A stretch of DNA of 40,158 bases from assembly GCA_036391995.1 (NCBI GenBank), contig DASVYU010000021.1:1-40158 (forward strand). Reading direction: 5' to 3'. Source of the DNA: Patescibacteria group bacterium. GTDB taxonomy: Bacteria > Patescibacteriota > Minisyncoccia > Moranbacterales > GWC2-37-73. Positions within the stretch are counted from its first letter, which is position 1; the number at the start of each line of letters is the position of its first letter. The translations under genes were made by a program, and so were the position numbers. Below, one piece after another: positions 1-39,246 of the stretch. Below the pieces are notes generated by a model. The model ran no database searches and was not told the DNA's origin. It was given only the letters and a program-made list of their open reading frames with translations.

Positions 1-625
1 GGAAGTCATCACGGGTCTCATTAAGGCCAATATTCCGACGCGCATCGCTTTCAAAGTCGCAACGCAGATAGATTCACGTACGATTTTGGATGCTGGCGGA
101 GCTGAAAAGCTTTTGGGAAATGGCGACATGTTGTTCTCTTCCGTGGGTGCTAGCGGCATGAGGCGTCTGCAGGGCGTTTATATTTCCGAAAACGAGGTGC
201 ATCGCGTGGTGGAATTCATCAAGAATCAGAAGTTTGACAAAATGGAAGATGACTTGGAAGATGAGATTGTAGACAGTGGTCCGAAGCGCGACAGGAATGG
301 CAATGGCGAAGTCACCAGCGGTTTTTCAGGAGACAAGATAGATTTTGCCGCCATCGCTTCCAATGACCAAGAGGATGCACTCTATGATGATGCCAAGCAG
401 ATTGTGATCCAAATGAAAAAAGCATCCACCTCTCTGTTGCAAAGAAGATTGCGAGTCGGTTATTCGCGCGCTGCAAGGTTGATCGACATGCTGGAGGACA
501 ATGGCATCATTGGGCCGCAGGATGGAGCCAAACCGCGCGAAGTCTTGGTGGCGGATGGCGAGAATCACACCGGCTATGAAGATGCTATGGGAGACCAAAC
601 AATCAGGGATAAGTGGCAAATGTAA
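1..625 (+). CDS. ftsK: DNA translocase FtsK/SpoIIIE, C-terminal part; the 5' end lies outside the window
   Basis: The frame is open from position 2. The translation carries the FtsK motor end and the gamma winged-helix tail (EVITGLIKANIPTRIAFKVATQIDSRTIL ... LYDDAKQIVIQMKKASTSLLQRRLRVGYSRAARLIDMLEDNGIIGP). Stop at 623-625. Confidence 0.85.
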   Translation, partial: EVITGLIKANIPTRIAFKVATQIDSRTILDAGGAEKLLGNGDMLFSSVGASGMRRLQGVYISENEVHRVVEFIKNQKFDKMEDDLEDEIVDSGPKRDRNGNGEVTSGFSGDKIDFAAIASNDQEDALYDDAKQIVIQMKKASTSLLQRRLRVGYSRAARLIDMLEDNGIIGPQDGAKPREVLVADGENHTGYEDAMGDQTIRDKWQM

Positions 626-1647
626 AAGCTGTATATATGGTAGGATTCACGACTAAAAAAATAGATTCACTGACTCTGGGAGAACGGATGAAAAAAATCC
701 GCAACGAGCACCGATTGAGTATCCAGGATGTTTCCAAAAGCACGAAAATACAAGCAAAATACCTTGAATATTTGGAAGAAGGAGAATATTCCAAGCTTCC
801 TGCTGATGTTTATGTCAAAGGCTTCTTGCGCAGTTACGCGATCAATATGGGACTCAATGAAGCTGCCTTGATCAAGCAATTCGAGCGTGAAAAAGGCATT
901 CACAGGAACATCAAGAAAACGGATGAACCTACAAAGTCCAATAAGCCGATCAAGTCTTCCGGCTTCGTGGTTACACCCAAGCTTATCATCGTAACTTCTG
1001 TCATGGTGGTGTCGCTGGCAAGCTTTCTCTACTTGTATAAGGAAGTGGACAGTTTCGTTTCGACTCCGCGTTTGGCAATCCTTACGCCTAGTGACGGAGC
1101 GACTGCTGACGGCAGCAGCGTGCATGTTGCTGGAGTGGCTGAAAAGGATGCCATGGTCTCAATCAATGATCAAGCTGTGCTTGTCAATGAAAAAGGTGAG
1201 TTCAGCGAGGATGTAGGACTTAAGAATGGTCTCAATACCATCATTGTGAAGGCGCGCAATCGCTTCAATAAACAAGCCACGCAATCCATTTCCGTGAATG
1301 CGCATATAGCAGAAGCAGTGGACAACAACAGTCAGCCTGTACAAATTGATCCGCAGCAAGAACAGATAACAAATGACGGAAGTGCTACTCCGTTTACGAT
1401 TGAAGTTTCAGTCAATCCTGATCCGACTTGGTTGTCGATCGAGGCTGACGGAAACTTGGTGTATAGCGGAGTATTGTTGCCAGGATCTAATCAGACTTTT
1501 TCTGCTCAGCAGATGGTCAGTGTGGCTTCAGGCAAAGGCAATGAGACATTTGTCAAAGTCAACGGCAAGGATATGGGTGCTGTAAGCAGTGAACCTGGTT
1601 CTGTTCGGGATATCCAGTTCAATGCAAGCGGCAAAATAAAGAAATAG
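613..1647 (+). CDS. rodZ: RodZ-like cytoskeleton protein: XRE-type HTH, one TM helix, DUF4115-like C-terminal domain
   Basis: N-terminal HTH (LTLGERMKKIRNEHRLSIQDVSKSTKIQAKYLEYLEEGEYSKLPADVYVKGFLRSYA), a single TM segment (IIVTSVMVVSLASFLYLY) and a RodZ C-domain-like tail. Possible starts are GTG 613, ATG 637 or ATG 688. The start overlaps the ftsK stop. Confidence 0.65.
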   Translation: MANVKAVYMVGFTTKKIDSLTLGERMKKIRNEHRLSIQDVSKSTKIQAKYLEYLEEGEYSKLPADVYVKGFLRSYAINMGLNEAALIKQFEREKGIHRNIKKTDEPTKSNKPIKSSGFVVTPKLIIVTSVMVVSLASFLYLYKEVDSFVSTPRLAILTPSDGATADGSSVHVAGVAEKDAMVSINDQAVLVNEKGEFSEDVGLKNGLNTIIVKARNRFNKQATQSISVNAHIAEAVDNNSQPVQIDPQQEQITNDGSATPFTIEVSVNPDPTWLSIEADGNLVYSGVLLPGSNQTFSAQQMVSVASGKGNETFVKVNGKDMGAVSSEPGSVRDIQFNASGKIKK

Positions 1648-1689
1648 ACAATATTAAACAAAGATTCAAAATGTTAAAAAGAAAATAAT

Positions 1690-2706
1690 ATGGCAAAGAA
1701 AACAACAACAACGAAAGAAATAGCGGAGAAAACAGAAAAAAAGAACGTGGATAAGGTTTTGGAAGACATTCAGGAGAAATTCGGTGAAGGCATGATCATG
1801 AAACTGGGAGATCTGCCCAAGGTGGATGTGGAATCCATTCCGACTGGTTCTGTTTCGCTGGACATCGCAATGGGAATCGGCGGTGTGCCTAGAGGTAGGA
1901 TCATTGAAGTTTATGGACCTGAGTCTTCCGGTAAGACGACTCTGGCTTTGCACATCGTGGCCAATGCTCAGAAAAAAGGTGGTACAGCGGCTTTTGTGGA
2001 TGCCGAGCATGCTTTGGATCCGGAATATGCTAAAAAGATAGGCGTCAACATCAATGAATTGCTCATTTCACAGCCTGATGCTGGCGAGCAGGCCCTGGAC
2101 ATTGTAGAGACGCTTGTGCGTTCCAATGCAGTAGATGTGATTGTGGTGGACTCTGTGGCCGCACTGGTGCCTCGCGCTGAAATCGAGGGCGATATGGGCG
2201 ACCAACATGTGGGAAGACAGGCGCGTCTTATGTCGCAAGCACTTAGAAAACTCACCCCAATCGTTTCTAAGACCAATGTGGTGGTGATTTTCATCAATCA
2301 GATCCGTATGAAGATCGGTGTGATGTTTGGCAATCCGGAAACGACGACTGGCGGTCAAGCGCTCAAGTTCTATTCCTCAGTACGCGTGGAAGTTAGAAAA
2401 GCCGCCCAGATCAAGAAAGGTGAAGATGTGGTGGGCAATCGCGTAAAGATTAAGATCGTGAAGAACAAGGTAGCGCCGCCTTTCAAGACTGCGGAATTCG
2501 ACATCATGTATAACGAAGGCATTTCTTTCACAGGGGACCTTTTGGATGCAGGCGTCAAATATGAAGTGCTCAAAAAATCCGGCAATTCTCTGTCTTATGG
2601 CGAGGAAAAACTTGGCGCTGGACGCGAAGCAGCGAAGGCTTATTTGAAGGAAAATCCGAAAACAGCCGACAAGATCTTCAAGGAGATCATGGCCAAGACC
2701 AAATAG
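1690..2706 (+). CDS. recA: Recombinase RecA
   Basis: Walker A ([12 protein letters not shown]), L1/L2 regions and a full RecA core ([37 protein letters not shown]). No SD upstream. Confidence 0.95.
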
Positions 2707-2709
2707 GCT

Positions 2710-2738
2710 TTGACAAAAACATAAAAAAGGAGTATAAT
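2710..2738 (+). promoter_or_regulatory. Perfect-consensus sigma70 promoter: TTGACA, 17 nt spacer, TATAAT
   Basis: TTGACA at 2710-2715, a 17-nt spacer, TATAAT at 2733-2738. The predicted TSS falls at about 2745, which is the A of an ATG. Confidence 0.5.
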
Positions 2739-2744
2739 TGATAT

Positions 2745-2843
2745 ATGCAAATAGTAAAGCGGGCTTGCCTCGCTGAAGTTCTTGAGACGAAAGCGGGTTT
2801 ACCTCGCCGAAGTTAACGAAGGCGGGTGCAAGCCCGCTTTTTT
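2745..2843 (+). ncRNA. Short structured transcript or leader after recA: attenuator-like element, or leaderless 23-codon ORF, ending in an intrinsic terminator
   Basis: Three GCGGG copies (2759-2768 GCGGGCUUGC; about 2793; 2822) compete for a single CCCGC at 2833-2837. The terminator hairpin GCGGGUGCAAGCCCGC plus U6 is at 2822-2843. The alternative is a 10-bp long-range stem GCGGGCUUGC/GCAAGCCCGC. A small ORF, MQIVKRACLAEVLETKAGLPRRS, runs 2745-2816. Confidence 0.35.
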
Positions 2844-2895
2844 CTTTTGGCAAAATATCAGCTATAATAAATCCATAAATCAATAAACAAAAACT

Positions 2896-3786
2896 ATGCC
2901 ACTAATAATCCTGCTGTTCATCATCATTATTGTGTTTATTTTGCCTAACATAAGGATTGTCAAACAGAACACAGTTCTTGTTATTGAGTTTTTGGGAAAA
3001 TACAAGAGAATCATGAGCGCGGGGCTTAATGTGAAAATTCCGCTCTTGGAAAGAGTTGCTAACGAAGTTTCTCTCCGCCAGCAGAATTTTTCAATCGGCG
3101 GCAAATATCCTTCCGCAGACAAAGTTATCGTGGATGTGGCTACCAACCTCATCTATTCTGTTAATCCGACCGAAGAAGGCGTGAAACGCTTTACTTATGT
3201 GTTGCTGGATCCCAAGCAATCCATTGGCGCCATCATTGAAAACTCACTTCGAACATACATTGCCAAGGAAACGCACGAAGGAATCTTGGAGAAAAAAGAA
3301 GAACTGGCCTTGCACATCAAGAGCGATCTGGACAAGCAATTCGCCGAATGGGGTATGCTCATCAGCAGCTTCCAGATCACTAATGTGAATTTCCCATTGG
3401 CCATTACGGACGCCATGTCTGAAGTCGTGGCTTCCCAGCAGCTAAGGAAGGCAGCGGAGAACAAAGGCGAAGCCATCAAAATCCAAGCCATCAAGGAAGC
3501 AGAAGCGGAAAAAGAAAGAAAAAGATTGCAAGGAGAAGGAATTGCGCTGGAACGTGAAGCCATTGCTGAGGGTCTCAAGAAATCCATTGAGACTGTACAG
3601 CAGGTTACCAATCAATCTTCCAGTGAGATTATGGCGATTCTGAGTCTCACTCAATATCTCGATACTTTGAAAGGCGTCGGTTCAAGTGAGAATTCCAAAG
3701 TCATTTTCATGGATACCAACATCCAGAAAACAGGAGATCTCATGCAGCAATTGGTTTCATCTTTGGAGGCTAATAAGCAAAATTAA
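2896..3786 (+). CDS. SPFH/band-7 (stomatin/HflC-like) membrane protein
   Basis: N-terminal TM segment, an SPFH core (VIEFLGKYKRIMSAGLNVKIPLLERV...KVIVDVATNLIYSV...ITNVNFPLAITDAMSEVVASQQLRKAAE) and a coiled-coil tail. Confidence 0.8.
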   Translation: MPLIILLFIIIIVFILPNIRIVKQNTVLVIEFLGKYKRIMSAGLNVKIPLLERVANEVSLRQQNFSIGGKYPSADKVIVDVATNLIYSVNPTEEGVKRFTYVLLDPKQSIGAIIENSLRTYIAKETHEGILEKKEELALHIKSDLDKQFAEWGMLISSFQITNVNFPLAITDAMSEVVASQQLRKAAENKGEAIKIQAIKEAEAEKERKRLQGEGIALEREAIAEGLKKSIETVQQVTNQSSSEIMAILSLTQYLDTLKGVGSSENSKVIFMDTNIQKTGDLMQQLVSSLEANKQN

Positions 3787-3799
3787 TTTTTTTTAAAAA

Positions 3800-4675
3800 A
3801 TGCGAATGCGTAAAATTATTTTGTTTGTTGTGATATTTATAATAATGACTGTGGGCGCAGACAAGTCTAGTGCGTATTATTACGGTTCGCAAGGTTATAG
3901 TTCTACATGGTATCCGGGCGGAATAGGTAGTGGTCTGGATTCTCCTCAGTACACACATTCTTACGGTAGTTCATATTGGAATGCGGCCAATGATCCTACC
4001 TGTGTTTATCATTACTGTTCAAACCCTGGAGAAGATGAACAATACAAAAATGATCAGATCAAATATTATACTGAAAAAGTTACCACTTTTTGTTCTGTCA
4101 CCGGGGATCAGAAAAAATGTGACAAATATTGTGCAAGTTTGAAATCTTATAGTGGCAAAAGTGCGCTTTGTGGAGATGTCATCAAAAAAACATCTCCTGA
4201 CAAAAATGTTGATGCGAACAATGTTTCAACTGAAAAACAGGACAGTGAATCAAAAAAATCGGAAGATGCAAAAAAAGCAGAAGAGGCGAGAAATGCAGAG
4301 ATTGCGCAAAAAGAAAATGATGCGAAAACGGAAGTGCAAAACATGACACAGGAAGGTTCTGATTCAAATGTTCAAGTCACAGATGCGATAAATTCTTTAA
4401 ATAGAACTGGTGCTATTAGAAAGTTTTTTCTGGGCGTTGATATGTCTAAAATTGATAAATTGAAGGAAAGTTTTAGAAAAAACAAAGAAATAATACAACA
4501 GTTAGAATCTGTTTCACAACAAGAAGTTGCAAGTAATAATAGTGAAATAATGAATTCCGTTCAGCAGCAAATTGACGAGCTCAATAAAAGAAATATTTTG
4601 ATAGAAAATGCAATAAATGATAATGAGCTAAAAGTGGGCTTTATTTATTGGTTGAAAGGAATTTTTAGGAAATAA
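3800..4675 (+). CDS. Secreted hypothetical protein: signal peptide, an 8-Cys N-domain, a K/E-rich linker and a coiled-coil C-terminus
   Basis: MRMRKIILFVVIFIIMTVGA signal peptide, then a Cys-rich region (CVYHYCSNPG...FCSVTGDQKKCDKYCASL...ALCGD), then charged, coiled-coil sequence. No recognisable family. Confidence 0.5.
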   Translation: MRMRKIILFVVIFIIMTVGADKSSAYYYGSQGYSSTWYPGGIGSGLDSPQYTHSYGSSYWNAANDPTCVYHYCSNPGEDEQYKNDQIKYYTEKVTTFCSVTGDQKKCDKYCASLKSYSGKSALCGDVIKKTSPDKNVDANNVSTEKQDSESKKSEDAKKAEEARNAEIAQKENDAKTEVQNMTQEGSDSNVQVTDAINSLNRTGAIRKFFLGVDMSKIDKLKESFRKNKEIIQQLESVSQQEVASNNSEIMNSVQQQIDELNKRNILIENAINDNELKVGFIYWLKGIFRK

Positions 4676-4694
4676 TTATTTTTAAAATAAAAAA

Positions 4695-5537
4695 ATGGAA
4701 GAACAGTTTATTCAGCAGGCTGGGGAAAGAAATGGAAACAATAGAATTTTTAAGAGGTTTTTTGAAATCTTCAAGCCTGGTTTTTTAGCTGAAAATTTAG
4801 ACACGATAGACTCTGGCAAGACTTGGAAATTTTGGTTTTTGAGCAACACTTTAGTTGCAATAGTTTTGACAATTATAATAGGATATACCATAAACAAAGG
4901 CATTGATGAAACTGCCAAAGAATTCCTTTTGAAATATCCTAATGCGAAAATATTTGTCAGTGGTGGAAAATTAAGCACTGAGGGCATAGACGAACCAATA
5001 TTTGAAAAATCAGACGATGGATCTGTGTTTGTTTTGGATACGAAAAATCAGAAATACGATGAAACTGTCCTTAGTGATTACAAAAAAGGCGTTTTTATCT
5101 CTTCTGACAAGATTTACAACAAAAAAAGCTCGATAGAAACGCAACAGTATGATATTTCAAAAATAAACAGGAATTTTTCTTTTACTCAAAAAGATCTCCA
5201 ATCAAAAGTTTGGATCTTGAAAGTATTTTTTATAGGCGTAGGCATATTTTTCGGATGGATTTATTTGAATGGTCTTAGATTGATCAGTGCTTTCTGGTGG
5301 GCTTTTTGGTTCTGGCTTCTTGCTGTTATCATGAAAATAGAAGGGGTTGGTTACAAGAATATATATTTTGCCGTGCTTAACTTTTATATCATTCCTCTGG
5401 TAATTTCGCTAGTATTGACGCTGTTTGGTTTGAATGTTGCATTTTTGACAACAATAATATTTTCAATCTTGTTTGTTGTAAATTTCTTGTTTATGAAAAA
5501 AAATCAAAAACAAAAAGAGGTTGTTATTAAAGAGTAA
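4695..5537 (+). CDS. Polytopic membrane protein, hypothetical
   Basis: One TM segment after about 50 aa, a soluble loop of about 120 aa, then 4-5 TM segments (WILKVFFIGVGIFFGWIYL...WWAFWFWLLAVIM...). No family could be assigned with confidence. Confidence 0.5.
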   Translation: MEEQFIQQAGERNGNNRIFKRFFEIFKPGFLAENLDTIDSGKTWKFWFLSNTLVAIVLTIIIGYTINKGIDETAKEFLLKYPNAKIFVSGGKLSTEGIDEPIFEKSDDGSVFVLDTKNQKYDETVLSDYKKGVFISSDKIYNKKSSIETQQYDISKINRNFSFTQKDLQSKVWILKVFFIGVGIFFGWIYLNGLRLISAFWWAFWFWLLAVIMKIEGVGYKNIYFAVLNFYIIPLVISLVLTLFGLNVAFLTTIIFSILFVVNFLFMKKNQKQKEVVIKE

Positions 5538-5611
5538 AATGGGGCGTAAAGAAGTTTTTATTTTATCTTTAAATTAGTTACAATTAATTTATAAATTTTT
5601 AAAACAATAAA

Positions 5612-6646
5612 ATGGAAGAAGGAAATATGGCAAATCCATTCGGAGCGGAGAATGCTTCAGAGGCGCAAACAAGCAGCGAGCAAAAACCTGAGCAAATCGT
5701 GGCGCCGGTTTCACAGGCTGCTGAAGTAAAGTATGCTGGTTTTTGGATTAGGTTGTTAGCTACTATTATAGATTTATTTCTTCCCGGAATTGTTGGAGTT
5801 ATTTTGGGATTTGTGGTTTTGTATATTTCACCAAAAAGTACTGGCAGTATTTATTTGACTATTACAAAGCTTATCATTATATGGGTTTACTATATTTGGA
5901 TGACTAACAAATATCAGGCAACGTTAGGCAAGATGATATTTGGATTAGGGGTTCAAAATAATGAGGGGAAAAAAGTTACTTTGGGGAAAATAGTGCTCAG
6001 GGAAACTATAGGGAAAATTCTTTCATGGATAACTCTTTCAATTGGTTTCATAATGGCTGGATTCACGAGGAGAAAGCAGGCTTTGCATGACAAAATAGCA
6101 GGTACAGTAGTTGTATATAAAGATAGCGGATTCCAGTCTTATTCCGGGCTGGTTTTGGGAGGATTTATTTTGGGAATATTTTCTTTTATTCCAGGTCTCG
6201 GTTTGTTTATTGGAGTTTTGGCTATTATATTTAGCGCAATTGCTTTTTTGGATGCAAAAAAGAATAAAAAACCCGGTAGGCGCATTGCAATAGCTGGAAT
6301 AATTCTTGGAATATTGGGAATAATGTTTACTATAGCACTTTATTCTTCATTGTATTATTTTGGATTTAAGGCTAAATCTGGCCCATTTACTGATATTAAA
6401 ATAGAAACAACAAAAACTATTTTGCAAAATACAGCAGGCTCCTTGGAGCTTTATAAAAAGGAACATGGAAACTATCCTGCTTCCATAAAGGATTTGCAAT
6501 CTGATAACAAAAGCGTTTTTGGAGAAGATTTTTATCAACAGCCACTATATTACAAAGTTTCTGGCGATGGACAATCATACGAGTTAAGAAGTATTGGTCC
6601 AGATGGGCAATATGGAACAGTGGATGATATTATTTTTGGCAAGTAA
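5612..6646 (+). CDS. Fusion protein: RDD-family membrane domain + DUF4190-like TM hairpins + C-terminal type II secretion pseudopilin (GspG-like) globular domain
   Basis: RDD-like N-terminus (YAGFWIRLLATIIDLFLPGIVGVILG). DUF4190-like segments (GLVLGGFILGIFSF...GRRIAIAGIILGILGIMF). The C-terminus matches the GspG C-domain pattern (LELYKKEHGNYPASIKDLQS...YELRSIGPDGQYGTVDDIIF) but has no prepilin leader. The start may be ATG 5627. Confidence 0.6.
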   Translation: MEEGNMANPFGAENASEAQTSSEQKPEQIVAPVSQAAEVKYAGFWIRLLATIIDLFLPGIVGVILGFVVLYISPKSTGSIYLTITKLIIIWVYYIWMTNKYQATLGKMIFGLGVQNNEGKKVTLGKIVLRETIGKILSWITLSIGFIMAGFTRRKQALHDKIAGTVVVYKDSGFQSYSGLVLGGFILGIFSFIPGLGLFIGVLAIIFSAIAFLDAKKNKKPGRRIAIAGIILGILGIMFTIALYSSLYYFGFKAKSGPFTDIKIETTKTILQNTAGSLELYKKEHGNYPASIKDLQSDNKSVFGEDFYQQPLYYKVSGDGQSYELRSIGPDGQYGTVDDIIFGK

Positions 6647-6672
6647 TAAGAAAATACAACTTTATAAACATC

Positions 6673-6702
6673 AAAACCGCTTATTGCAGAGCGGTTTTGT
6701 GT
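6673..6702 (+). terminator. Rho-independent terminator, potentially bidirectional
   Basis: AAAACCGC-ttattgcaga-GCGGTTTT hairpin immediately after the 5612 gene and before the convergent RAYT gene. Confidence 0.5.
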
Positions 6703-7262
6703 TATATGAAGATATTTTCAATGTTGTTTCTGTCACGTTCCCACATTTTGGGATTTGTCTGGATGTATTCGCGGATTTTATTTAACGATTCATCATTACG
6801 GATAATGTGGTCGTAGAAACGTGGTTGCCAGGAGAAATATGTATTGTGCATGGTAGCAAATTTTTTAACGCCCACCTTGAATCCTCTAATAACGGACGCC
6901 AGATTTTCTGATTGTGGTCCAAATTTATTACCATTCACGTGTAGAGACGCAAAATTTTGCGTCTCTACATTTAAATGATTGATGCCATTCCAATTAATTT
7001 TTATAATTCCATGCATGTGGTTTGGCATGATGACAAATTCATCCAAATTTATAAATGGAAAATGGTTTGGAATTTTTTTCCAATATTCTTCTGCAATCTT
7101 TCCAATTTCCGATAGAATAATTTTTCCATCAACAATATCACCGAAAAAATGTTCGCGATCACGCGTACAAATTGTGATGAAATACATTCCATCTTGTGAA
7201 TAATTATATCCTGCCAATCTTGAAGATTTTATTGCGTATTTGTTTTTGAATTTATCATGCAT
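6702..7262 (-). mobile_element. REP-associated tyrosine transposase (RAYT), IS200/IS605-type Y1 HUH transposase
   Basis: HUH motif (MPNHMHGII) and a catalytic Tyr region (WQPRFYDHIIRNDESLNKIREYIQTNP). The N-terminus is typical of RAYTs (RLAGYNYSQDGMYFITICTRDR). The likely start is the ATG at 7262; the ORF tool extended it to 7301. Flanked by REP-like palindromes. Confidence 0.75.
6941..6970. repeat. REP-like 30-bp perfect palindrome, copy A, lying in-frame inside the RAYT CDS
   Basis: tgtagagacgcaaaattttgcgtctctaca, preceded by attcacgtg. It encodes NVETQNFASLHV within the transposase. Confidence 0.8.
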
Positions 7263-7304
7263 AAAAAATAATAAAATCAAAATATATACATATTTTAACA
7301 CAAA

Positions 7305-7330
7305 TAAAATCGGGTTTAAACCCGATTTTA
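7305..7330. repeat. 26-bp perfect palindrome between the RAYT start and efp
   Basis: taaaatcgggtttaaacccgatttta; a hairpin-forming element upstream of the RAYT start. Confidence 0.7.
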
Positions 7331-7336
7331 TTGAAA

Positions 7337-7378
7337 TTCACGTGTGACAGGTAGAGACGCAAAATTTTGCGTCTCTAC
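7337..7378. repeat. REP-like palindrome, copy B, with the same attcacgtg leader
   Basis: attcacgtgtgacag-gtagagacgcaaaattttgcgtctctac. It lies 6 bp from the efp stop codon and could double as the efp terminator hairpin. Confidence 0.8.
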
Positions 7379-7383
7379 AATTA

Positions 7384-7941
7384 TCAGGCGCGGGAAACGT
7401 ACTCTCCTTTTTCCGTGTTGATGATTAACTTGTCTCCTTCGTTGATGAAAAGAGGGGCGCTGACCTTGAGTCCGGTTTCCATGGTCACAACTTTGCCGCC
7501 TGTACCAGCAGTGTCGCCCTTGATTCCTGGAGGAGCTTCCACGACTGTCAGAGTAACTTTGATCGGCAGTTCGATGTTTACTGGATTGCCATTGAAGTTT
7601 AGTACAGTTACTTCGGTGCCTTCCAGAAGATAAAGATAGGCGTCGCCAATCACATCTTTGCTGAAAGTGAACTGCTCATAAGAGCTCATGTCCATGAAGA
7701 CATAACCCTCTGGTTCGTTGTAGAGATATTGAGCTTTGGTTTTGCTCATATCGGCCTCATCTACTTTTTCTGACCCCTGGAAAGTCTTGTCCAACACAGC
7801 TCCAGTCAGCAGGTTTTTGAGCTTGGTACGCAGCACTGCGCCTGCGCGTCCGGTCTTGGAATGCTCATGAGTGAGGACAACATAAGGCTGTCCTTCCCAG
7901 AGAATATTCTTGCCGGATTTGATATCGCTAAGTCCTAGCAT
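7384..7941 (-). CDS. efp: Elongation factor P
   Basis: A full EF-P three-domain sequence (KTGRAGAVLRTKLKNLLTGAVLDKTF...). Confidence 0.9.
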   Translation of the reverse strand: MLGLSDIKSGKNILWEGQPYVVLTHEHSKTGRAGAVLRTKLKNLLTGAVLDKTFQGSEKVDEADMSKTKAQYLYNEPEGYVFMDMSSYEQFTFSKDVIGDAYLYLLEGTEVTVLNFNGNPVNIELPIKVTLTVVEAPPGIKGDTAGTGGKVVTMETGLKVSAPLFINEGDKLIINTEKGEYVSRA

Positions 7942-8042
7942 AGTACTTTTATGTTATGCTAATCCACGAATTTAACACTAATCTGCGAATTACGAATTCG
8001 CAATTAGTGGATTGGCATTTATTTGCGGATTAGTATCTTTGC
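7942..8042. promoter_or_regulatory. Paralogous dyad-symmetric intergenic element E1, upstream of efp
   Basis: Shares a core with 8250-8370 and 8854-8971: atgctaatcNacgaatNNaacactaatctNcgaatt ... aattcgcaNttNgNggattggcatttattNgNggattag. It ends 10-25 nt before the start codon and carries no SD. Confidence 0.6.
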
Positions 8043-8249
8043 TTATTTAACTACAAAAGGTACCAAAGCCATCACGCGAGCGCGCTTGATAGCTTGGGAA
8101 AGCGTTCTTTGGTGCTTCGTGCAGATGCCATGGCGCTTTGGAGGATAGATTTTTCCTTGGCTGTTCATGAAGCGGCGGATGAGGTAAGCATCCTTGTAGT
8201 CGATTTTGTCCATCTTCTGATCACAGAAGTAACAAGTCTTTTTTTCCAT
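8043..8249 (-). CDS. rpsR: 30S ribosomal protein S18
   Basis: The translation (MEKKTCYFCDQKMDKIDYKDAYLIRRFMNSQGKIYPPKRHGICTKHQRTLSQAIKRARVMALVPF) is a full-length S18. Confidence 0.9.
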   Translation of the reverse strand: MEKKTCYFCDQKMDKIDYKDAYLIRRFMNSQGKIYPPKRHGICTKHQRTLSQAIKRARVMALVPFVVK

Positions 8250-8370
8250 AATTCAATGTGATGCTAATCAACGAATGGAACACTAATCTACGAATTGCGA
8301 ATGGATTTCAACAGAATTTATTCGCGATTTGTGGATTGGCATTTATTTGTGGATTCGCATCGTTTATTAT
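8250..8370. promoter_or_regulatory. Paralogous intergenic element E2, upstream of rpsR
   Basis: Same architecture as E1 and E3: two direct ctaatcNacgaat half-sites plus an inverted pair ggattgg/ggattcgca. Confidence 0.6.
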
Positions 8371-8853
8371 TTAAAACGGTACATCCTCGATTCTTACTTC
8401 GTCGGATTCCTCATCCAGATTGATGGTCGGAATCTCTTCTGCTGCTGGAGCTGCAGGTTTGCTAGCAGGCGCTGGAGTCGAGGCTTGTGGGGCAAGGCGA
8501 TTGTAGCTTCCGCTTCCCGCGCCGCTTGGGCGGCTTCCCATTTGCATATTCTCGGCAATTATTTCCGTAGTCCTTCTTTCCACTCCATCTTTGCCAGTGT
8601 AGGCACGTGTCTCTAGGCGTCCTTCGAAATAAGCCTCCTGACCTTTAGTGAGGTATTGGCCGGCTATTTCAGCTAGGCGTCCCCAGATTACGATGTTGTG
8701 GAACTCAGTCTTTTCCTGCTTCTGACCGCTCTTGTCCATCCAGGTGCGTCCGGTGGCTAAACCGACGGTCGCTACCGTCTGTCCTGAAGGAGTGGTGCGG
8801 AGTTCGACGTCACGCGTGAGGCGTCCGATGAGTTGGACTTTGTTCAAATTCAT
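8371..8853 (-). CDS. ssb: Single-stranded DNA-binding protein
   Basis: OB-fold N-domain (MNLNKVQLIGRLTRDVELRTTPSGQTVATVGLATGRTW), a Gly/Pro/Ala-rich linker and an acidic tail ending DEESDEVRIEDVPF. Confidence 0.9.
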   Translation of the reverse strand: MNLNKVQLIGRLTRDVELRTTPSGQTVATVGLATGRTWMDKSGQKQEKTEFHNIVIWGRLAEIAGQYLTKGQEAYFEGRLETRAYTGKDGVERRTTEIIAENMQMGSRPSGAGSGSYNRLAPQASTPAPASKPAAPAAEEIPTINLDEESDEVRIEDVPF

Positions 8854-8971
8854 AGAATTTGTGTGATGCTAATCTACGAATGCAACACTAATCTACGAAT
8901 TGCGAATGGATTCAAGTTTGTTTTATTCGCAATTTGCGGATTGGCATTTATTGGCGGATTAGCATATTTAA
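8854..8971. promoter_or_regulatory. Paralogous intergenic element E3, upstream of ssb
   Basis: gatgctaatctacgaatgcaacactaatctacgaattgcgaatgg ... attcgcaatttgcggattggcatttattggcggattagcata. Confidence 0.6.
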
Positions 8972-9577
8972 TTAGATGTTGAGCAATTCGTCCAGCTGCT
9001 TGTCGATGTCCTTGGACTCGGCTTCTTTCTTGCTCTTTTTTGGAGCTTCTTTCACCTCTTCAACTTTGGTTTCCTCGACTTTTTCTTCTTTGACTTCTTC
9101 CTTAATTTCAGCTATAGGCTTAACTTCCTCTTTGACTGCTTCCTTGGCTTCTGGCTTTGGGGCAGCTTTCTTTTCTGGGCGCTGAGCTTTGACTGGAGCT
9201 TGCTTGGCATTTCCGAGCTCTTGCTCTTTGCGGCGCTGCTTGGCTCCGAGATCTGGCAGATCTTCAGTCTTCACGATCAGGAAGCGGAGCACATCATTGT
9301 TGAGGTTCAGTTTGTTGGTGATGGCTTGGATGCCGAATTCTTTCTCAGCATTCTTTTCGTCAGCCCAATATTCGACCTCAGGAAGTTCGAAACGGCGGGT
9401 GATGTAGGTTCCGCGATTCTGGTGCTTGATTTCATAGGCAAGCTTCCTTTTTTCAACAATCTCTTCTTCGAGTATTGTTGCTCCTTCTTGAGTGAGCATG
9501 GCGCTCACGCTATTGCGGATCGCGTCGAGATTGGCCTCTTGGCGTTCTCCGACGAGATAGAACAGTTCGTACTGCAT
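8972..9577 (-). CDS. rpsF: 30S ribosomal protein S6 with a long K/E/A-rich C-terminal extension
   Basis: The S6 core begins at MQYELFYLVGERQ (ATG at 9577; the ORF tool start at 9592 adds MYNKI). A low-complexity KEEVKEE tail of about 90 aa follows. Confidence 0.85.
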   Translation of the reverse strand: MQYELFYLVGERQEANLDAIRNSVSAMLTQEGATILEEEIVEKRKLAYEIKHQNRGTYITRRFELPEVEYWADEKNAEKEFGIQAITNKLNLNNDVLRFLIVKTEDLPDLGAKQRRKEQELGNAKQAPVKAQRPEKKAAPKPEAKEAVKEEVKPIAEIKEEVKEEKVEETKVEEVKEAPKKSKKEAESKDIDKQLDELLNI

Positions 9578-9598
9578 AATTTTATTATACATTATTTA

Positions 9599-9660
9599 TT
9601 AACGGGTTAACGGGTTAACGCGTTAGGGATTCCAACTCGTGAACTCGTGAACTCGTGAAC
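9599..9660. promoter_or_regulatory. Upstream module, left copy: 3x CCGTTAAC-type tandem octamers and 3x CTCGTGAA tandem octamers; reads toward rpsF
   Basis: ttaacgggttaacgggttaacgcgtta ... aactcgtgaactcgtgaactcgtgaa. The reverse complement is present at 16120-16182. The distance from the GTTAAC repeats to the rpsF ATG is 21 nt. Confidence 0.6.
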
Positions 9661-9735
9661 TGTTGAATAAATAAACCCTCCAATAAAGAAAGCCGCGCCT
9701 TTTGGAGGATTCTTCCGACTTATCCTTTTGTTAAG

Positions 9736-9857: not shown

Positions 9858-10019
9858 GATCTTTAGAGTATTTTTTGTAGTGCGAAAAAATATAAAAAAT
9901 ACTCTGGAAGTCAATTTCCAGGCTAGCAATCTTTACAACTGAATTAATGAAATGAAAGGAGGGAAAAGGATTTGAGATTGTAAAATCCAAGAGAGGACTG
10001 AGTGGAAGTTAAACATCAA

Positions 10020-11981
10020 CGACAAGAAAAGGAGAGTAAGATGAAAGAAATGATTCCGCATTTGCCCTCATGGATCCCGTACCTGCTGTTTCTTCTGCCC
10101 GTTGCCTTCTGCATCGTCTTCTACCGTCTCGTGATCCGGATCGGCGGAGTGGTCATCATTCCGGAAGATTCCATAGGGATCGTGAACAAGAAGTTTGTGC
10201 TCTGGGGGACAAACAAGAACTTGCCCGACGGCAAGATCATCGCCCTCAATGGCGAGGCTGGCTGGCAGGCCGACGCGCTTGCTCCCGGTGTGCATTACCG
10301 GAAGTGGCCATGGCAGTACGAGATCAAGATTGAGAAGATGTTCGTCGTGCCGGCTGGTAATATCGCTACTGTGTATGCCAGAGACGGCGTCGCGATCGAG
10401 GGAGGCCGAGTTCTCGGCAGGAAGGTTAACTGCGACACATTCCAGGATGCCAGGAAGTTTCTGGTAAACGGAGGGGAGCGCGGTCAGCAGATCGCCTTCA
10501 TTCCCCAGGGAACATACCGTATCAACACCGCTCTGTTTGAAGTAAAGACGGAAAAGGTCTACGAAGTTCCGAGCGGGAAAGTCGGCGTTATCACGACCAA
10601 GGATGGCAAAGAACTGCCCAAGGACGAGATCGCCGGTGAGAAAGTAGATGGGCACGATTCCTACCAGAACGGCCAGGCTTTTATGGACAATGGCGGCTGG
10701 AAAGGGCGTCAGGCGCAGGTCATTCTTGCCGGACGGTATTTTATCAACCCGTTCTTTGCCGAAGTGGAACTGGTCGACATGACGGAGGTTCAGATCGCGC
10801 ATGTAGGCGTCGTCATCCAGCTCTACGGCAAGGCTGGTACCGATGTTTCCGGTGATGATTTCCAGCATGCCAGCCTGGTTGGACAGGGAGAGAAGGGCGT
10901 CTGGAGGGACCCACTTGACCCTGGTCTCTATGCGATCAACCCCTGTACCCACAAGGTTGTCCAGGTGCCCACGCAAAACATCGTCCTTAACTGGGCCGAT
11001 GATACCTTTGAATCGCACAGGTATGACGAAAAACTGAGCTCGATCACTGTCCGTTCCATGGACGGTTTCAGCTTCACGCTGAACGTCAGCCAGATCATCC
11101 ACATTTCCCGTAACTATGCTTCCTACGTGATTGCGCAGTTCGGCAGCGTGGAGAGTCTGGTCAACAACGTGTTGTCGCCGCTGATCGGAAACTACTTTCG
11201 AAACAGTGCGCAGAACAGCAATGTGATCTCTTTCCTGAGCGAGCGCAACCAGCGCCAGGATCAGGCCAAGGACAAGATCCAGGAAGTTTTGACCAAGCAT
11301 CATGTCACTTCGGTCGACACGCTGATTGGCGACATTAATCCGCCGGAAGAACTGCTCGAACCGCTCAAACAGAAACAGATCGCCGAGCAGCAGAAGCTCA
11401 CCTTCGCTGTCCAGCAGGAAGCTCAGGTGGAACGGCAAAAACTGGAACAATCTAGAGCCATGGCTGAAACCCAGGCGAGCGTCGTTTCTTCGGAGCGCCA
11501 GGTGGCGATCAAAAAGTTCGGTGCTGAAGCTGTCCAGGAAGAAGCCAAGGGTACGGCCGGCGCCAAGACGATCAACGCCAAGGCGGACGCTGAGGTGCTG
11601 AAAGTCGTCGGTATGGCCGAGGCTGAGAAAATCAAGGCTGTCGGTGGTGCCGAAGCGGATGTTATCAAGCAGAAGATTGATTCCATGGAAGCCGGTAACT
11701 ATGCCCTGGTTCTCGTGGCGGAACATCTGGCTAAAGCTGGGGTGCCCTTGGTACCGCAGATCACGGCTGGTGGAAGTGGTGGTGCTGAAGGCGGGCTGGT
11801 CAATGTCCTCCTCGGAACGCTGCTTCACGACAACCTGAAAAAGGCGGCTGTAACACCAGCTGCGGCTCCGCAGGCTGCCCATCTCGAAGCCGTAGCAGCT
11901 GCTGAACCGGCTGCAGCACCCGCTGCCTCGGCGTCCGAAGAGAGGAATGAGCCGGCTGCAGGCGAATCTGTCGAGGAATAA
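10020..11981 (+). CDS. Flotillin-like SPFH protein (YqiK/FloT family), in a high-GC island
   Basis: N-terminal TM (IPYLLFLLPVAFCIVFY), an SPFH core, and a flotillin-type C-terminal AEAE region (VVGMAEAEKIKAVGGAEADVIKQKIDSMEAGNYALVLVAEHLAKAGVPLVPQI). Strong SD (aaaaggagag) before ATG 10020. Local GC about 57%. The ORF tool start at 10002 is 6 codons longer. Confidence 0.75.
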   Translation, partial: RQEKESKMKEMIPHLPSWIPYLLFLLPVAFCIVFYRLVIRIGGVVIIPEDSIGIVNKKFVLWGTNKNLPDGKIIALNGEAGWQADALAPGVHYRKWPWQYEIKIEKMFVVPAGNIATVYARDGVAIEGGRVLGRKVNCDTFQDARKFLVNGGERGQQIAFIPQGTYRINTALFEVKTEKVYEVPSGKVGVITTKDGKELPKDEIAGEKVDGHDSYQNGQAFMDNGGWKGRQAQVILAGRYFINPFFAEVELVDMTEVQIAHVGVVIQLYGKAGTDVSGDDFQHASLVGQGEKGVWRDPLDPGLYAINPCTHKVVQVPTQNIVLNWADDTFESHRYDEKLSSITVRSMDGFSFTLNVSQIIHISRNYASYVIAQFGSVESLVNNVLSPLIGNYFRNSAQNSNVISFLSERNQRQDQAKDKIQEVLTKHHVTSVDTLIGDINPPEELLEPLKQKQIAEQQKLTFAVQQEAQVERQKLEQSRAMAETQASVVSSERQVAIKKFGAEAVQEEAKGTAGAKTINAKADAEVLKVVGMAEAEKIKAVGGAEADVIKQKIDSMEAGNYALVLVAEHLAKAGVPLVPQITAGGSGGAEGGLVNVLLGTLLHDNLKKAAVTPAAAPQAAHLEAVAAAEPAAAPAASASEERNEPAAGESVEE

Positions 11982-13987: not shown

Positions 13988-15946
13988 ATGGATTTTGAGA
14001 TTTCTAGCAAATATAAGCCTGCCGGCGATCAGCCGCAGGCCATTGAATTGCTCACATACGGGCTGGAACATCAGCAGAAGTTTCAGACGCTTTTGGGTGT
14101 GACTGGATCGGGCAAGACTTTCACGATTGCCAATGTGATCGAGAATGTGCAGAAGCCCACTTTGGTGATCGCGCCCAACAAGACTTTGGCAGCGCAGCTG
14201 GTGCAAGAATTTCGCACCTTCTTTCCCAAGAACGCTGTGGAATATTTCGTGTCCTATTACGACTATTATCAGCCGGAAGCCTACATCGCTTCGACTGATA
14301 CATATATCGAAAAGGAAGTACAGATCAATGATGAGATCGACAGATTGCGTCATGCTGCAACCTCCGCTTTGCTTTCCAGGCGCGATGTGATCATCGTTGC
14401 ATCGGTTTCCTGCATCTACGGCTTGGGAAGCCCGGACTATTATCGTGAAGGGACTGTTTCGGTTGTTGTCGGAGAAAAAGCTTCACGCGAAGCGATCATG
14501 AAAGGCATGATAGATATGCAATATCATCGCAGTGAGGTTCTGGAGCGCGGCAAGTTCCGCGTGATCGGCGACACGATCGAAGTGATCACGCCTGGCAGAG
14601 AGATCGTGTCACGCATCGAATTGGAAGATGGCTTGGTCAAAAGAATCCAAGAATATGATTTCCTGACGGGCGAAAAACTGGGAGATCTCAAGCAGACGCT
14701 TATTTATCCAGCCAAACATTTTGTGGTGCCAGAACCTGTCATGCAGGCAGCACTGGAAGAGATTGAACAGGAAGCCAAGGAAAGAGTGGAATATTTCAAA
14801 GCCAAAGGCAAGCTTCTGGAAGCGGAGAGGATTTCTCGCAGAACCAAACAGGATCTGGAGATGATGCGCGAGATCGGCTATTGCAATGGCGTGGAGAATT
14901 ATTCGCGCTATCTGACAGGCCGTAATGAAGGCGAGCCGCCATACACTTTGGTGGATTATTTCCCGGAAGATTTTCTTTTGGTGATCGATGAATCGCACGT
15001 GACCATCCCGCAGCTTAGTGCCATGTATAACGGGGATCGTGCCAGAAAAGAAGCGCTGATCGAAAACGGCTTCCGTCTGCCGAGCGCTTTTGACAATCGC
15101 CCGCTCAAATTTCCGGAATTCGAATCGCACATCAACCAGCTCATTTTCACTTCGGCTACTCCTGGAGCATATGAGAAGCAGAATTCTTCCCAGATGGTGG
15201 AACAGATCATCCGCCCGACGGGGCTCATCGACCCGGAGCTCATCATCAGGCCAGCCAAGGGGCAGGTCAAAGATGTGCTGCCTGAAATAGAGAAGGTCAT
15301 CGAGAAAAAGGAACGCGTCTTGATCACGACGCTCACTAAGAAGATGGCGGAGGATCTGGCGGAATTCTTGAAGGAACATGGCATCAAATGCGAGTATCTG
15401 CATTCCAGTGTGGACACTCTGGATCGCATCAGGATATTGGAAGGCCTCAGGCGAGGGGATTTCGACGTGCTGGTGGGAGTCAATCTTCTGCGCGAAGGCT
15501 TGGATCTGCCGGAAGTTTCCCTGGTAGCCATTCTGGATGCGGACAAGGAAGGATTCTTGCGCAGCGAGACTTCGCTCATCCAGACCATAGGCCGCGCCGC
15601 GCGTAACGTGAACGGCAGAGTGCTTCTCTATGCTGACAACATGACCGGCTCCATGCAGAGGGCGATCGATGAGACCAATCGCCGCCGGGAGAAGCAGCTG
15701 GCCTACAACAAGAAGCACGGCATCACCCCTAAGACTATCCAGAAGAACATCAAATCCATCGTGGATCACGAGATCAACCCCCAGGTACCGACTGATTTTT
15801 CACAAGTGGAATCCCTAGAGGACATTGCTGGCTACATCAAACAGAAAGAGAAAGAGATGAAAGACGCGGCCCGTGCCCTGGAGTTCGAGAAAGCGGCTCT
15901 TATCCGCGATGAGATTTCCCAGCTCAGGAAATTGCAAATAAAATAG
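13988..15946 (+). CDS. uvrB: Excinuclease ABC subunit B
   Basis: Helicase motifs (GVTGSGKTF; DESH), a beta-hairpin region and a C-terminal UVR domain ([18 protein letters not shown]). Confidence 0.95.
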
Positions 15947-16051: not shown

Positions 16052-16119
16052 TTGCGTACATTTATAATGCCTAGTAAAATACAAGAGACTCAAGGTCTCC
16101 TTTGTAGTTGGTTGAAAAG

Positions 16120-16182
16120 TTCACGAGTTCACGAGTTAGCGGGTTTATTTATCCAACGCGTTAACCCGTTAACCCGTTAACT
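16120..16182. promoter_or_regulatory. Upstream module, right copy: 2x TTCACGAG and 3x GTTAACCC-type octamers; reads toward the DsbA-like gene
   Basis: ttcacgagttcacgag ... aacgcgttaacccgttaacccgttaac is the reverse complement of 9599-9660. It sits 18 nt before ATG 16201, the same geometry as at rpsF. Confidence 0.6.
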
Positions 16183-16200
16183 GAATAATAAATATTCAAT

Positions 16201-21061: not shown

Positions 21062-21469
21062 TCAGGATACTGACTCTAAAAATGTCTTCAGAGAATGATA
21101 GATGACTCTCAGGAAGACCACATTCTCTCCCGGAAGTTTTTTCTCCAGCGTGGCATTTCTGAAGAACTCTTCCAGTGTCACTTTATCGGGAATCTGCTGG
21201 AGTTCTTCGAATTTCATGCCATTGGAGTTGGCAATTTGCGGTATGTATTGGCAGAGCATGTTATCCAGGCGGTCTTTGAGCCTGGAGTCTATGTTCCTGT
21301 TCCAGATGGCAGTCTGGATCTGCTGCAGAAGCTGCTTCACCATCCTGTCGCTGCCCACGAGCCCGACAATAGACGGACAATACTTGCCGAAGCTGACTTG
21401 CTCGAGCATGGGCAAAGCCCTTCGAAAATCATTTCTGCTGGCTGGGCGGTTCATTTTTGCGGCCATCAT
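21062..21469 (-). CDS. Hypothetical protein, 135 aa: gene B of a higher-GC two-gene insert
   Basis: Own SD (aaaggagaag) before ATG ATG. No recognisable domain. GC near 50%. Confidence 0.45.
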   Translation of the reverse strand: MMAAKMNRPASRNDFRRALPMLEQVSFGKYCPSIVGLVGSDRMVKQLLQQIQTAIWNRNIDSRLKDRLDNMLCQYIPQIANSNGMKFEELQQIPDKVTLEEFFRNATLEKKLPGENVVFLRVIYHSLKTFLESVS

Positions 21470-21511: not shown

Positions 21512-21856
21512 TTATTCATGGCTGTCGAGGATTTGCTTCTTGATCGCGTTGATTCTGGAGTCTTCGATGAAACTGAAGTTTTTGAATAAGGAAGTGAGTC
21601 TGTGGTAGAGCTCGTAGAAAGCATCGGACGTAGTTGAGTTGTTGGTATACTTTACGTCGGTATATTTGCCGATAATCTCCAGCATCCGGCATGTTTCTTT
21701 TTCGTGATCCGCAACGACATCATCGGACATCCGGAAATATTTGATGCAGTCCTGGAGCCATTCGTGGTAGGTGCTGCGTTCTGTGGGAAGCAGGAGTGTT
21801 TGTTCGAGATCATCCATGAAATCCCTTCCTTGCGGGGTTAATTTCCACTTGACCAT
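21512..21856 (-). CDS. Hypothetical protein, 114 aa: gene A of the two-gene insert
   Basis: SD aaaggagga 6 nt before the ATG. No recognisable domain. Co-oriented with gene B and 42 bp upstream of it. Confidence 0.45.
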   Translation of the reverse strand: MVKWKLTPQGRDFMDDLEQTLLLPTERSTYHEWLQDCIKYFRMSDDVVADHEKETCRMLEIIGKYTDVKYTNNSTTSDAFYELYHRLTSLFKNFSFIEDSRINAIKKQILDSHE

Positions 21857-21940
21857 AATCCAATCCTCCTTTGCCTTTTTAAGGCAATCAGTTGTAATAT
21901 TCAGTTGGATAGGTACGACATTATATTATACTCCTTTTTT

Positions 21941-35471: not shown

Positions 35472-35644
35472 GACTGCAAATAGACTGTCTTTACTTTTCA
35501 GGTTTTTTCTGGTACCATGTGTTATTAGCAAATCATAAATCTGAATTTATAAGTCCTAAGTGTAATAGGTTTAAAAATACGGGCTTTCTCGGGTTTTGAA
35601 TTTATTTAGAAATTAGGATTTAGAAATTAGAAATTTTATTTATT

Positions 35645-39107: not shown

Positions 39108-39246
39108 AGGGATTAAATTTTCAATTTATAATTTTTAATTTTCAAACAATGTTCAATTTTTCAATGATTCAAATTTCAAACATTTAGAAGTTTGGTCATT
39201 GGAAATTGTTTAGAAATTGAAAATTGAAAATTAGAAATTCATTTTT
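39108..39246. repeat. AT-rich heptamer-repeat divergent intergenic region of the (GAAAATT)n / (AATTTTC)n family
   Basis: The left half is rich in aattttcaa units and the right half in gaaattg/gaaaatt units, making an imperfect large dyad between the divergent YdjM-like gene and rsmI. Similar tagaaatt repeats lie at 35581-35644. Confidence 0.6.

Follow-up and report, generated by a model that had tools for sequence, protein, structure and literature searches.

A conserved promoter-hairpin cassette downstream of recA in Moranbacteria-like bacteria, a candidate short RNA gene

Background

Small RNA (sRNA) ligands of the ProQ/FinO type carry an A-rich 5' flank of the terminator hairpin which is able to pair with the U tail. 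A locus with a related architecture, in which a promoter leads through a purine-rich leader into a G+C-rich hairpin and a U tract (in the following, the cassette), sits just 3' of recA in a stretch of 40,158 nucleotides (nt) from an uncultured Moranbacteria-like bacterium of the candidate phyla radiation (contig DASVYU010000021.1 of assembly GCA_036391995.1; this whole stretch is called the window). Members of this radiation cannot be grown alone, and our literature search found no described sRNAs or regulatory RNAs for them.

Several other described systems resemble the cassette in their layout. In lambda and Stx phages, the constitutive promoter PR' is terminated directly downstream at tR' (6S RNA/StxS), and read-through needs the Q antiterminator (PMC7547250). 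In the type III toxin-antitoxin families ToxIN, CptIN and TenpIN, short RNA repeats stand in tandem between a promoter and a terminator, and a protein gene follows (PMC3401426). Finally, the trp and pyrBI attenuators have to be considered.

An initial annotation of the locus, made from the sequence alone, had left the choice between a riboregulator or leader-peptide attenuator of the following SPFH gene and an sRNA. Our analysis makes the sRNA option the leading reading. We tentatively regard the cassette as a clade-specific short hairpin RNA unit, that is an sRNA-like gene whose RNA is recognised and whose hairpin ends recA transcription as well; this is the most probable of the readings considered, without being probable outright.

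A full-consensus promoter behind recA

The 5' part of the cassette and the gene in front of it consist of the following features.

1690-2706, + strand: recA (Pfam RecA, E 8e-140), the last gene of an ftsK-rodZ-recA run, with its stop codon TAG at 2704-2706
2710-2715, + strand: -35 hexamer TTGACA of promoter P1; TTGAC is invariant across 11 cassettes (those of the window and of 10 relatives)
2729-2738, + strand: GGAG and the P1 -10 hexamer TATAAT (2733-2738), with a spacer of 17 nt between the hexamers
2745, + strand: A predicted from the promoter geometry as the transcription start, 7 nt past the -10 hexamer

The -35 hexamer starts 3 nt past the stop codon of recA. The perfect TTGACA-17-TATAAT promoter proposed in the initial annotation was confirmed (2710-2738, 12 of 12 hexamer positions) and is conserved in the relatives. 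It agrees with the sigma-70 pattern of TTGACA and TATAAT 17 ± 1 nt apart and is the sole 12/12 match in positions 1-8000; with up to one mismatch allowed, the whole 40-kb window contains 3 matches versus 0.21 expected. The transcription start had been predicted on the A of an ATG, and A2745 does open an ATG in the window; an A is found at the predicted +1 distance in 10 of the 11 cassettes. Across the alignment of all 11, there is little or no variation in TTGAC, in the spacing of 17 nt, in GGnGTATA-T and in the +1 A, the strictly invariant columns including G30, G31, G33, T34-A37 and T39.

It might be argued that the locus has no dedicated function and merely joins an ordinary recA terminator to a fortuitous promoter-like sequence in A+T-rich DNA, where promoter-like matches are indeed common (27 versus 19.6 expected in 8 kb). 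However, the 12/12 match is unique, and the hexamers, their spacing and the +1 A are kept in 11 lineages in which the flanks cannot be aligned, making this explanation very unlikely. The ordinary promoters of these genomes are of the form TGnTATAAT without a -35 hexamer, and P1 is therefore of a distinct and stronger promoter class.

Two side observations concern the promoter itself. Directly 5' of TATAAT, the motif GGnG is invariant in all 11 copies of P1 as well as in a second P1-like promoter of the window; it is unlike the TGn of an extended -10 and may be a lineage-specific promoter element. This second promoter (TGGACAAATTCATAAAAAAGGAGTATAAT, 21925-21953 on the - strand) is identical to P1 at 25 of 27 positions, with the spacer end CATAAAAAAGGAGTATAAT entirely included. 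It is followed by a 5' untranslated region with a small hairpin and AGGAGG and by the open reading frames (ORFs) 21856..21512 and 21469..21062, which gave no Pfam or NCBIfam match; the promoter is divergent from uvrC. As the spacers differ among P1 orthologues, it seems to have arisen recently by copying or conversion of a promoter within the genome.

The hairpin and its tandem repeats

Downstream of the predicted start, the RNA is built from repeated segments.

2756-2789, + strand: repeat unit 1 (AAAGCGGGCTTGCCTCGCTGAAGTTCTTGAGACG), part of direct-repeat family D1, of inverted repeat I2 and of the minimum free energy (MFE) fold
2790-2818, + strand: repeat unit 2 (AAAGCGGGTTTACCTCGCCGAAGTTAACG), which makes up the GCGGG/CUCGC hairpin at the apex of the MFE fold
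2822-2837, + strand: local terminator hairpin GCGGGU-GCAA-GCCCGC, a third, partial unit and the counterpart of the single hairpin in the relatives
2828-2840, + strand: 3' arm GCAAGCCCGCTTT of a 13-bp outer stem, pairing with 2756-2768 (inverted repeat I2, MFE fold)
2838-2848, + strand: U tract, T6 (2838-2843) and then CTTTT; predicted 3' end of the RNA at about 2843

Three GCGGG segments (2759-2763, 2793-2797 and 2822-2826) and a lone CCCGC (2833-2837) are present as had been described. The GCGGG segments are part of a direct repeat which had been missed and whose tandem copies are spaced by 34 nt (2756-2780 versus 2790-2814, 88% identical over 25 nt); a third, partial copy is the 5' arm of the terminator. 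The first 13 nt of unit 1 (2756-2768, AAAGCGGGCUUGC) form the 5' arm of a long outer stem and are perfectly complementary to GCAAGCCCGCUUU (2828-2840), with the remainder nested inside in the MFE fold. The complete 104-nt RNA has a folding energy of -43.5 kcal/mol (z = -3.8), and none of 200 shuffled sequences was as stable.

A terminator scan placed a stem at 2818-2841, in front of a T run, confirming the canonical hairpin with a U6 tract ending at 2843. The G+C-rich stem-loop and adjoining U tract of an intrinsic terminator are present, and every homologue folds likewise, so that an RNA of about 100 nt between promoter and terminator, as proposed before, is supported as a prediction. Between the recA stop codon and the hairpin no other terminator is found; the hairpin therefore also closes the ftsK-rodZ-recA operon, being the sole terminator available to those genes.

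The motif of the 34-nt unit is confined to this locus within the 40 kb. The extra 59 nt of the window are a recent tandem duplication, and the added length is best seen as two tandem 34-nt units lying inside the apex of an ancestral hairpin. As a side observation, unit 1 holds CGCTGAAGTTCT (2771-2782), a perfect 12-nt match to the codons of the recA ALKF motif of several unrelated bacteria. Descent of unit 1 from recA was rejected, and the match (E about 0.7) was treated as chance.

The cassette in relatives

The RecA protein of the window has its closest relatives among the Moranbacteria. Relatives were obtained from a genome collection, from contigs encoding RecA homologues 81-87% identical to that of the window and through one homologue of a small ORF described below. 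The cassette was found in 10 distinct relatives (L001, L082, L083, L086, L089, L092, L093, L094, L099 and L100), whose RecA proteins are 76-87% identical to that of the window where measured. All share the same layout, namely TTGAC[AT], a 17-nt spacer, TATAAT (TATACT in L100), a purine-rich leader of 10-15 nt, a hairpin of the ACGGGTG...CCCGT type and 5-7 T. This recurrence of promoter and hairpin in 10 relatives indicates more than chance. Three further relatives with RecA identities of 78-81% (L002, L003 and L097) are without the cassette, and the order there is the usual one, terminator first and then promoter.

Seven of the relatives possess the short form only, with an RNA of 35-45 nt. 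In the other three (L083, L092 and L099) an additional 13-bp A+U-rich hairpin (TTAGAAAT...ATTTCTAA) is nested in the apex, and L083 contains one unit which is about 70% identical, by hand alignment, to the 34-nt unit of the window. The window itself has two such units and no A+U-rich hairpin, and the 34-nt units are missing from 9 of the 10 relatives. The MFE fold of every variant is a single hairpin ending at the U tract, and CGGGTG is found in 11 of 11 cassettes.

The stem is preserved by compensatory changes. Among the seven short forms one pair is A-U three times and C-G three times, and another is A-U or G-C; the window has G-C where most relatives have A-U. When the cassette hairpins of six genomes are compared pairwise, their identity averages 0.75 (core 0.65), whereas the orthologous terminators behind the small ORF of these genomes average 0.59 (core 0.44). 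That the hairpin is more alike than its neighbouring terminator suggests a constraint beyond the needs of termination, and this sequence comparison points to an RNA which may itself be recognised, e.g. by a protein.

Neither a leader peptide nor a switch

One further feature of the window has to be considered at this point.

2745-2816, + strand: micro-ORF MQIVKRACLAEVLETKAGLPRRS of 23 codons, judged to be no gene

It had been suggested that translation of a leader peptide or leaderless micro-ORF from the 5'-terminal AUG picks between terminator and anti-terminator. The ATG at the predicted +1 does open the 23-codon ORF, an ATG is also present at this position in L083, and both peptides contain, in frame, the motif CLxEV (CL[AG]EV). 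However, only 4 of the 11 cassettes have ATG at the predicted start, against ATA in 6 and ACA in 1, and where peptides are present they are unrelated, varying in length, stop position and sequence (MELKNELCLGEVRADRGG, MELKKRVICPIRN, MRMEKRVAKPVFY...). In detail, the ORF has 18 amino acids in L083 and 13 in L092 and runs across the U tract in L093, and L099 has a three-hairpin RNA like that of L092 yet no ATG. As 34 is not a multiple of three, the two units of the window are read in different frames, and the shared CLxEV is a reflection of the nucleotide homology of the 34-nt unit. With the ATG in so few cassettes and the units in different frames, the micro-ORF is rejected.

The folding results argue in the same direction. 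The three GCGGG segments had been thought to compete for the one CCCGC and thereby to give terminator or anti-terminator alternatives; they do compete, yet each outcome is a terminator. Every low-energy fold, whether long-range or local, keeps CCCGC in a stem beside the U tract, and the local alternative GCGGGU-GCAA-GCCCGC is likewise a terminator. Forcing CCCGC to be unpaired costs 17.5 kcal/mol (-24.9 versus -42.4), and a fold with three separate hairpins reaches only -12.2 kcal/mol. There is thus no thermodynamic anti-terminator, none being found within 17 kcal/mol of the terminator fold, and a leader-peptide attenuator is extremely unlikely. In prefixes 83-86 nt long, at the point at which the 3' arm is about to emerge, GGCGGG and CCUCGCC pair transiently, and this alone could delay terminator formation kinetically. 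The short forms have no alternative structure, and their leader is only 10-15 nt long. Conservation of the pairing segments in relatives had been named beforehand as a test of the switch, and the extra GCGGG segments are missing from 9 of the 10, an outcome which counts against it.

A metabolite riboswitch or another ligand-sensing leader for the SPFH gene would equally place a structured RNA between promoter and terminator, upstream of a gene. The Rfam comparison proposed initially gave no family: with Rfam 15, neither the whole window nor 9 relatives gave a match at gathering thresholds, and positions 2600-3000, compared at E <= 10, returned only noise, the best being NsiR8 on the opposite strand with 28 bits versus a gathering score of 61. 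Known riboswitches and cis-regulatory RNAs were rejected for this reason and because the short forms are without an aptamer. As no aptamer core is conserved, as most relatives are too short for one, as the extra length of the window is a recent duplication and as the downstream gene varies by genome, there is hardly any chance that the cassette is such a sensor.

Finally, two units and a partial third, 88% identical at 34-nt spacing, lie between a promoter and a terminator, with a protein gene behind, which is a layout like that of ToxIN, CptIN and TenpIN with their 2-3 tandem repeats (PMC3401426). In a type III toxin-antitoxin-like locus the tandem RNA repeats of about 34 nt would be the antitoxin and the gene behind the terminator the toxin. 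However, the downstream protein is SPFH/HflK-like, has no PADLOC match and is no endoribonuclease of the ToxN/AbiQ type; moreover, the repeats are missing from 9 of the 10 relatives which keep the cassette, and their 88% identity extends over just 25 nt. This is the least probable of the explanations weighed here.

Short hairpin RNA or promoter-proximal terminator

The remaining evidence comes from the sequence behind the cassette.

2863-2868, + strand: -10 hexamer TATAAT (AGCTATAAT) of a candidate promoter P2, between terminator and SPFH gene
2896-3786, + strand: gene of an SPFH/Band_7 (HflK-like) membrane protein (Pfam Band_7, E 2e-27; NCBIfam HflK below cut-off)

As had been noted, the SPFH gene is the next gene and recX does not intervene; no RecX domain was found in any of the window ORFs scanned. 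The SPFH gene begins 52 nt past the terminator, in the slot which is occupied in 10 of 10 relatives by a small ORF of 46-51 amino acids, 55-147 nt after the U tract. This small ORF carries CxxC at its N-terminus and a membrane helix at its C-terminus (e.g. MEKKYKCPRCSKRHK...LVPLLVFTLFGQWGLF; the example from L086 lies at 3845-3985), is rarely annotated, belongs to no Pfam family and has few database homologues. Neither tblastn nor a motif search found it in the window, which keeps an intact cassette with a perfect promoter despite this loss. In L093 the order is recA, SPFH, cassette and small ORF, and the SPFH protein there is non-orthologous, being 21% identical to that of the window. The cassette is therefore bound neither to the recA stop codon nor to SPFH, and the link to recA or SPFH specifically, which the initial annotation had drawn, does not hold in the relatives. 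As a side observation, a conserved hairpin TGCTCGGGGGAGCA precedes the small ORF in L082, L093, L094 and L100.

The cassette has what is expected of a stand-alone sRNA gene, i.e. its own promoter and terminator, no conserved ORF and retention in relatives. In such a gene, RNA polymerase would start at about A2745 of the full-consensus sigma-70 promoter P1 and transcribe the purine-rich leader and then the G+C-rich hairpin with its U tract, most transcripts probably ending near 2843. The product would be a stable, almost fully paired hairpin RNA of about 100 nt here and of 35-45 nt in most relatives, and the two tandem 34-nt units would lengthen the apex of the hairpin without creating a switch. 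The same hairpin would terminate transcription from the upstream ftsK-rodZ-recA genes, and SPFH would be expressed from its own -10 hexamer (2863-2868), from a fraction of P1 read-through or from both. A perfect TATAAT between terminator and next gene is indeed found at 6 of 11 loci, versus 1.8 expected (P = 0.0025), and at 2 of these 6 as TGnTATAAT. We infer that P1 is probably active and termination efficient, and that selection presumably maintains the short RNA and not a read-through transcript.

This reading can be taken further. The hairpin of these Moranbacteria might be a regulatory RNA which is recognised in a sequence-specific manner and transcribed from the strongest class of promoter in these tiny genomes, either as a protein-sequestering or protein-binding sRNA or as the target of a hairpin-binding antiterminator gating expression of the variable slot between recA and efp, and it would have been amplified here to three tandem copies. 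The 34-nt units may add extra copies of the recognised GCGGG hairpin, and by analogy with multi-site decoy RNAs the arrangement of GCGGG-N5-CUCGC twice plus the terminator could be a three-copy amplification. We regard this extended version as rather unlikely.

There are however several points which speak against an sRNA-like gene. P1 activity and the 3' end of the RNA are predictions from the DNA. The comparative alignment proposed initially did reveal stem-preserving changes, but the covariation in the 7 related short forms is not significant, its score being reached by 72 of 500 shuffles. The loop exposed in the MFE fold of the short forms has only 4-7 nt, leaving scant room for a base-pairing seed, and, unlike stand-alone sRNA genes, the cassette RNA is without a known target or binding protein. 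In addition, pairing tends to form between the extreme 5' end and sequence past the U tract (Fisher P = 0.016, with lineages that are not independent), which would be relevant in read-through transcripts only. The small ORF co-occurs with the cassette in 10 of 10 relatives, and at all 11 loci the cassette lies 52-147 nt upstream of a co-oriented gene. At 5 of these loci no clear second promoter is present in the interval, so that the downstream ORF there may need read-through from P1, which favours a role in cis.

Such a role is taken by the most serious alternative, a cis-acting promoter-proximal terminator. P1 would then be the promoter of the downstream gene, which is the small ORF in the relatives and SPFH here, and the hairpin would stop most transcripts; a fraction, constant or raised by a hairpin-binding antiterminator protein, would read through, the short RNA would be a by-product and the hairpin could act as a 5' stabiliser in the mRNA. 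The constant co-orientation and distance, the small ORF in all relatives and the five intervals without a separate -10 are in line with this. So is, weakly, the complementarity of leader and trailer past the U tract. A sequence-constrained hairpin would fit a binding protein, and the transient GGCGGG/CCUCGCC pairing could slow terminator formation. A precedent exists in the constitutively active PR', which is terminated directly downstream to give the sRNA StxS (PMC7547250).

On the other hand, the short forms with their leader of 10-15 nt have no alternative structure, the terminators are canonical and strong, and a perfect TATAAT follows the terminator at 6 of 11 loci. No consistent -10-like pause element was found in the initially transcribed region of the 11 leaders, and Pfam scans of the 40 kb detected no antiterminator gene. 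Moreover, the cassette outlives the loss of the small ORF. A cis-acting terminator is thus a possible but less probable explanation, and the short hairpin RNA unit remains our preferred one.

The surrounding locus and other features of the window

Around the cassette the gene order is conserved and runs from ftsK through a rodZ-like gene and recA to a variable interval, beyond which the opposite strand carries efp, rpsR, ssb and rpsF. The gene content of this recA-efp interval (2707-7384 in the window) differs in nearly every relative (SPFH, RDD, DUF975, DUF7847 or a 644-amino-acid protein). In the window it holds SPFH, a secreted-looking protein, DUF1189, RDD-DUF4190 and a RAYT-like gene, and the G+C content falls to 32% at 4001-6000. 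The interval looks like a local hotspot of gene turnover.

The RAYT-like ORF (6702-7301 on the - strand; NCBIfam NF047646, E 5e-17, below cut-off) is associated with a GTAG-headed perfect palindrome of 28 nt (GTAGAGACGCAAAATTTTGCGTCTCTAC), which is present in two copies, one inside the ORF (6941-6968) and one upstream of it (7351-7379). The sequence of this palindrome is unrelated to the 34-nt units.

DNA-repair genes are clustered in the window, namely recA, ssb, uvrB, uvrA, uvrC and a second uvrA paralogue (8371-8853, 13988-15946, 18030-20948, 21905-23329 and 35645-38479 for those beyond recA). A second SPFH protein of 659 amino acids is encoded at 10002-11981. The intergenic regions are full of short tandem A+T-rich motifs (AAATTGAAAATTG, AACGGGTTAACGGGTT, GAACTCGTGAACTCGT, AATCCACGAATT), and this filler includes blocks of about 100 nt which recur between efp, ssb and rpsF as well as a 69-nt inverted pair 6.4 kb apart (7952-8050, 8257-8374, 8862-8979, 9586-9667 versus 16112-16201; further filler at 22826-22866, 28525-28550, 35595-35635 and 39199-39239). 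Comparable A+T-rich filler follows recA in relatives.

Other identities considered

Several known kinds of elements were rejected for the cassette. A signal recognition particle RNA or 6S RNA was dismissed, on inspection of the sequence, for the lack of a GGAA-loop domain IV motif, for short forms of only 40 nt and for the lack of an Rfam match. ARAGORN predicted neither a tRNA nor a tmRNA in the window, and a pattern search in viral contigs gave 0 matches. Small ORFs with a start codon inside the loop of the hairpin (AUG in L082 and L089) are not conserved, and a Shine-Dalgarno-like reading of GGGUGAU fails because no start codon lies at the right distance and no ORF is conserved. A LexA/Cheo box was considered for the CGAAC-N14-GTTCG palindrome of L083, which is missing elsewhere and has the wrong spacing. 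A TIGR-Tas guide array does not agree with just two near-identical units, and no Nop-domain match was found among the window ORFs scanned. Finally, a RAYT-associated repetitive extragenic palindromic (REP) element was dismissed, as the unit motif is confined to a single locus in 40 kb and the RAYT-like gene has other palindromes.

Comparison with known systems

Our analysis shows that the cassette is real, conserved and absent from Rfam, that its architecture is a familiar one and that the switch and peptide readings fail. It is a concrete candidate sRNA or attenuator to seek in metatranscriptomes. It also gives a first view of a maximal-strength promoter in this lineage, TTGACA-17-GGnGTATAAT, and marks a variable gene slot beside recA. 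If the cassette were a mere transcription-unit boundary it would be ordinary, and the value of the analysis would lie in the removal of a false riboswitch or leader-peptide lead.

Among the described systems, the attenuators of trp and pyrBI resemble the cassette in that a terminator stands ahead of a gene and is itself preceded by a promoter, a short leader and complementary segments that are repeated. However, a conserved leader ORF, regulatory codons and a stable anti-terminator are all lacking from the cassette, whose extra segments are a lineage-specific duplication. In contrast to ToxIN, CptIN and TenpIN, it is followed by SPFH and not by an endoribonuclease, and the repeats occur only in this genome, with one unit in L083.

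The resemblance to PR'-tR' of lambda and Stx phages (PMC7547250) lies in a strong promoter running straight into a terminator, in a short RNA as by-product and in the presence of downstream genes. The cassette differs in being chromosomal and syntenic beside recA and in its much shorter transcript; no Q-like domain was found among the proteins of the 40-kb window that were scanned, nor a consistent -10-like pause hexamer in the 11 leaders.

Compared to stand-alone sRNA genes, the cassette RNA is in most copies only 35-45 nt long, offers almost no single-stranded seed and is not in Rfam 15. With such genes, and in particular those of the ProQ/FinO type, it has in common a strong promoter and a terminal G+C hairpin joined to a U tract; the 5' flank is A-rich, no ORF is conserved, and conservation is restricted to a clade.

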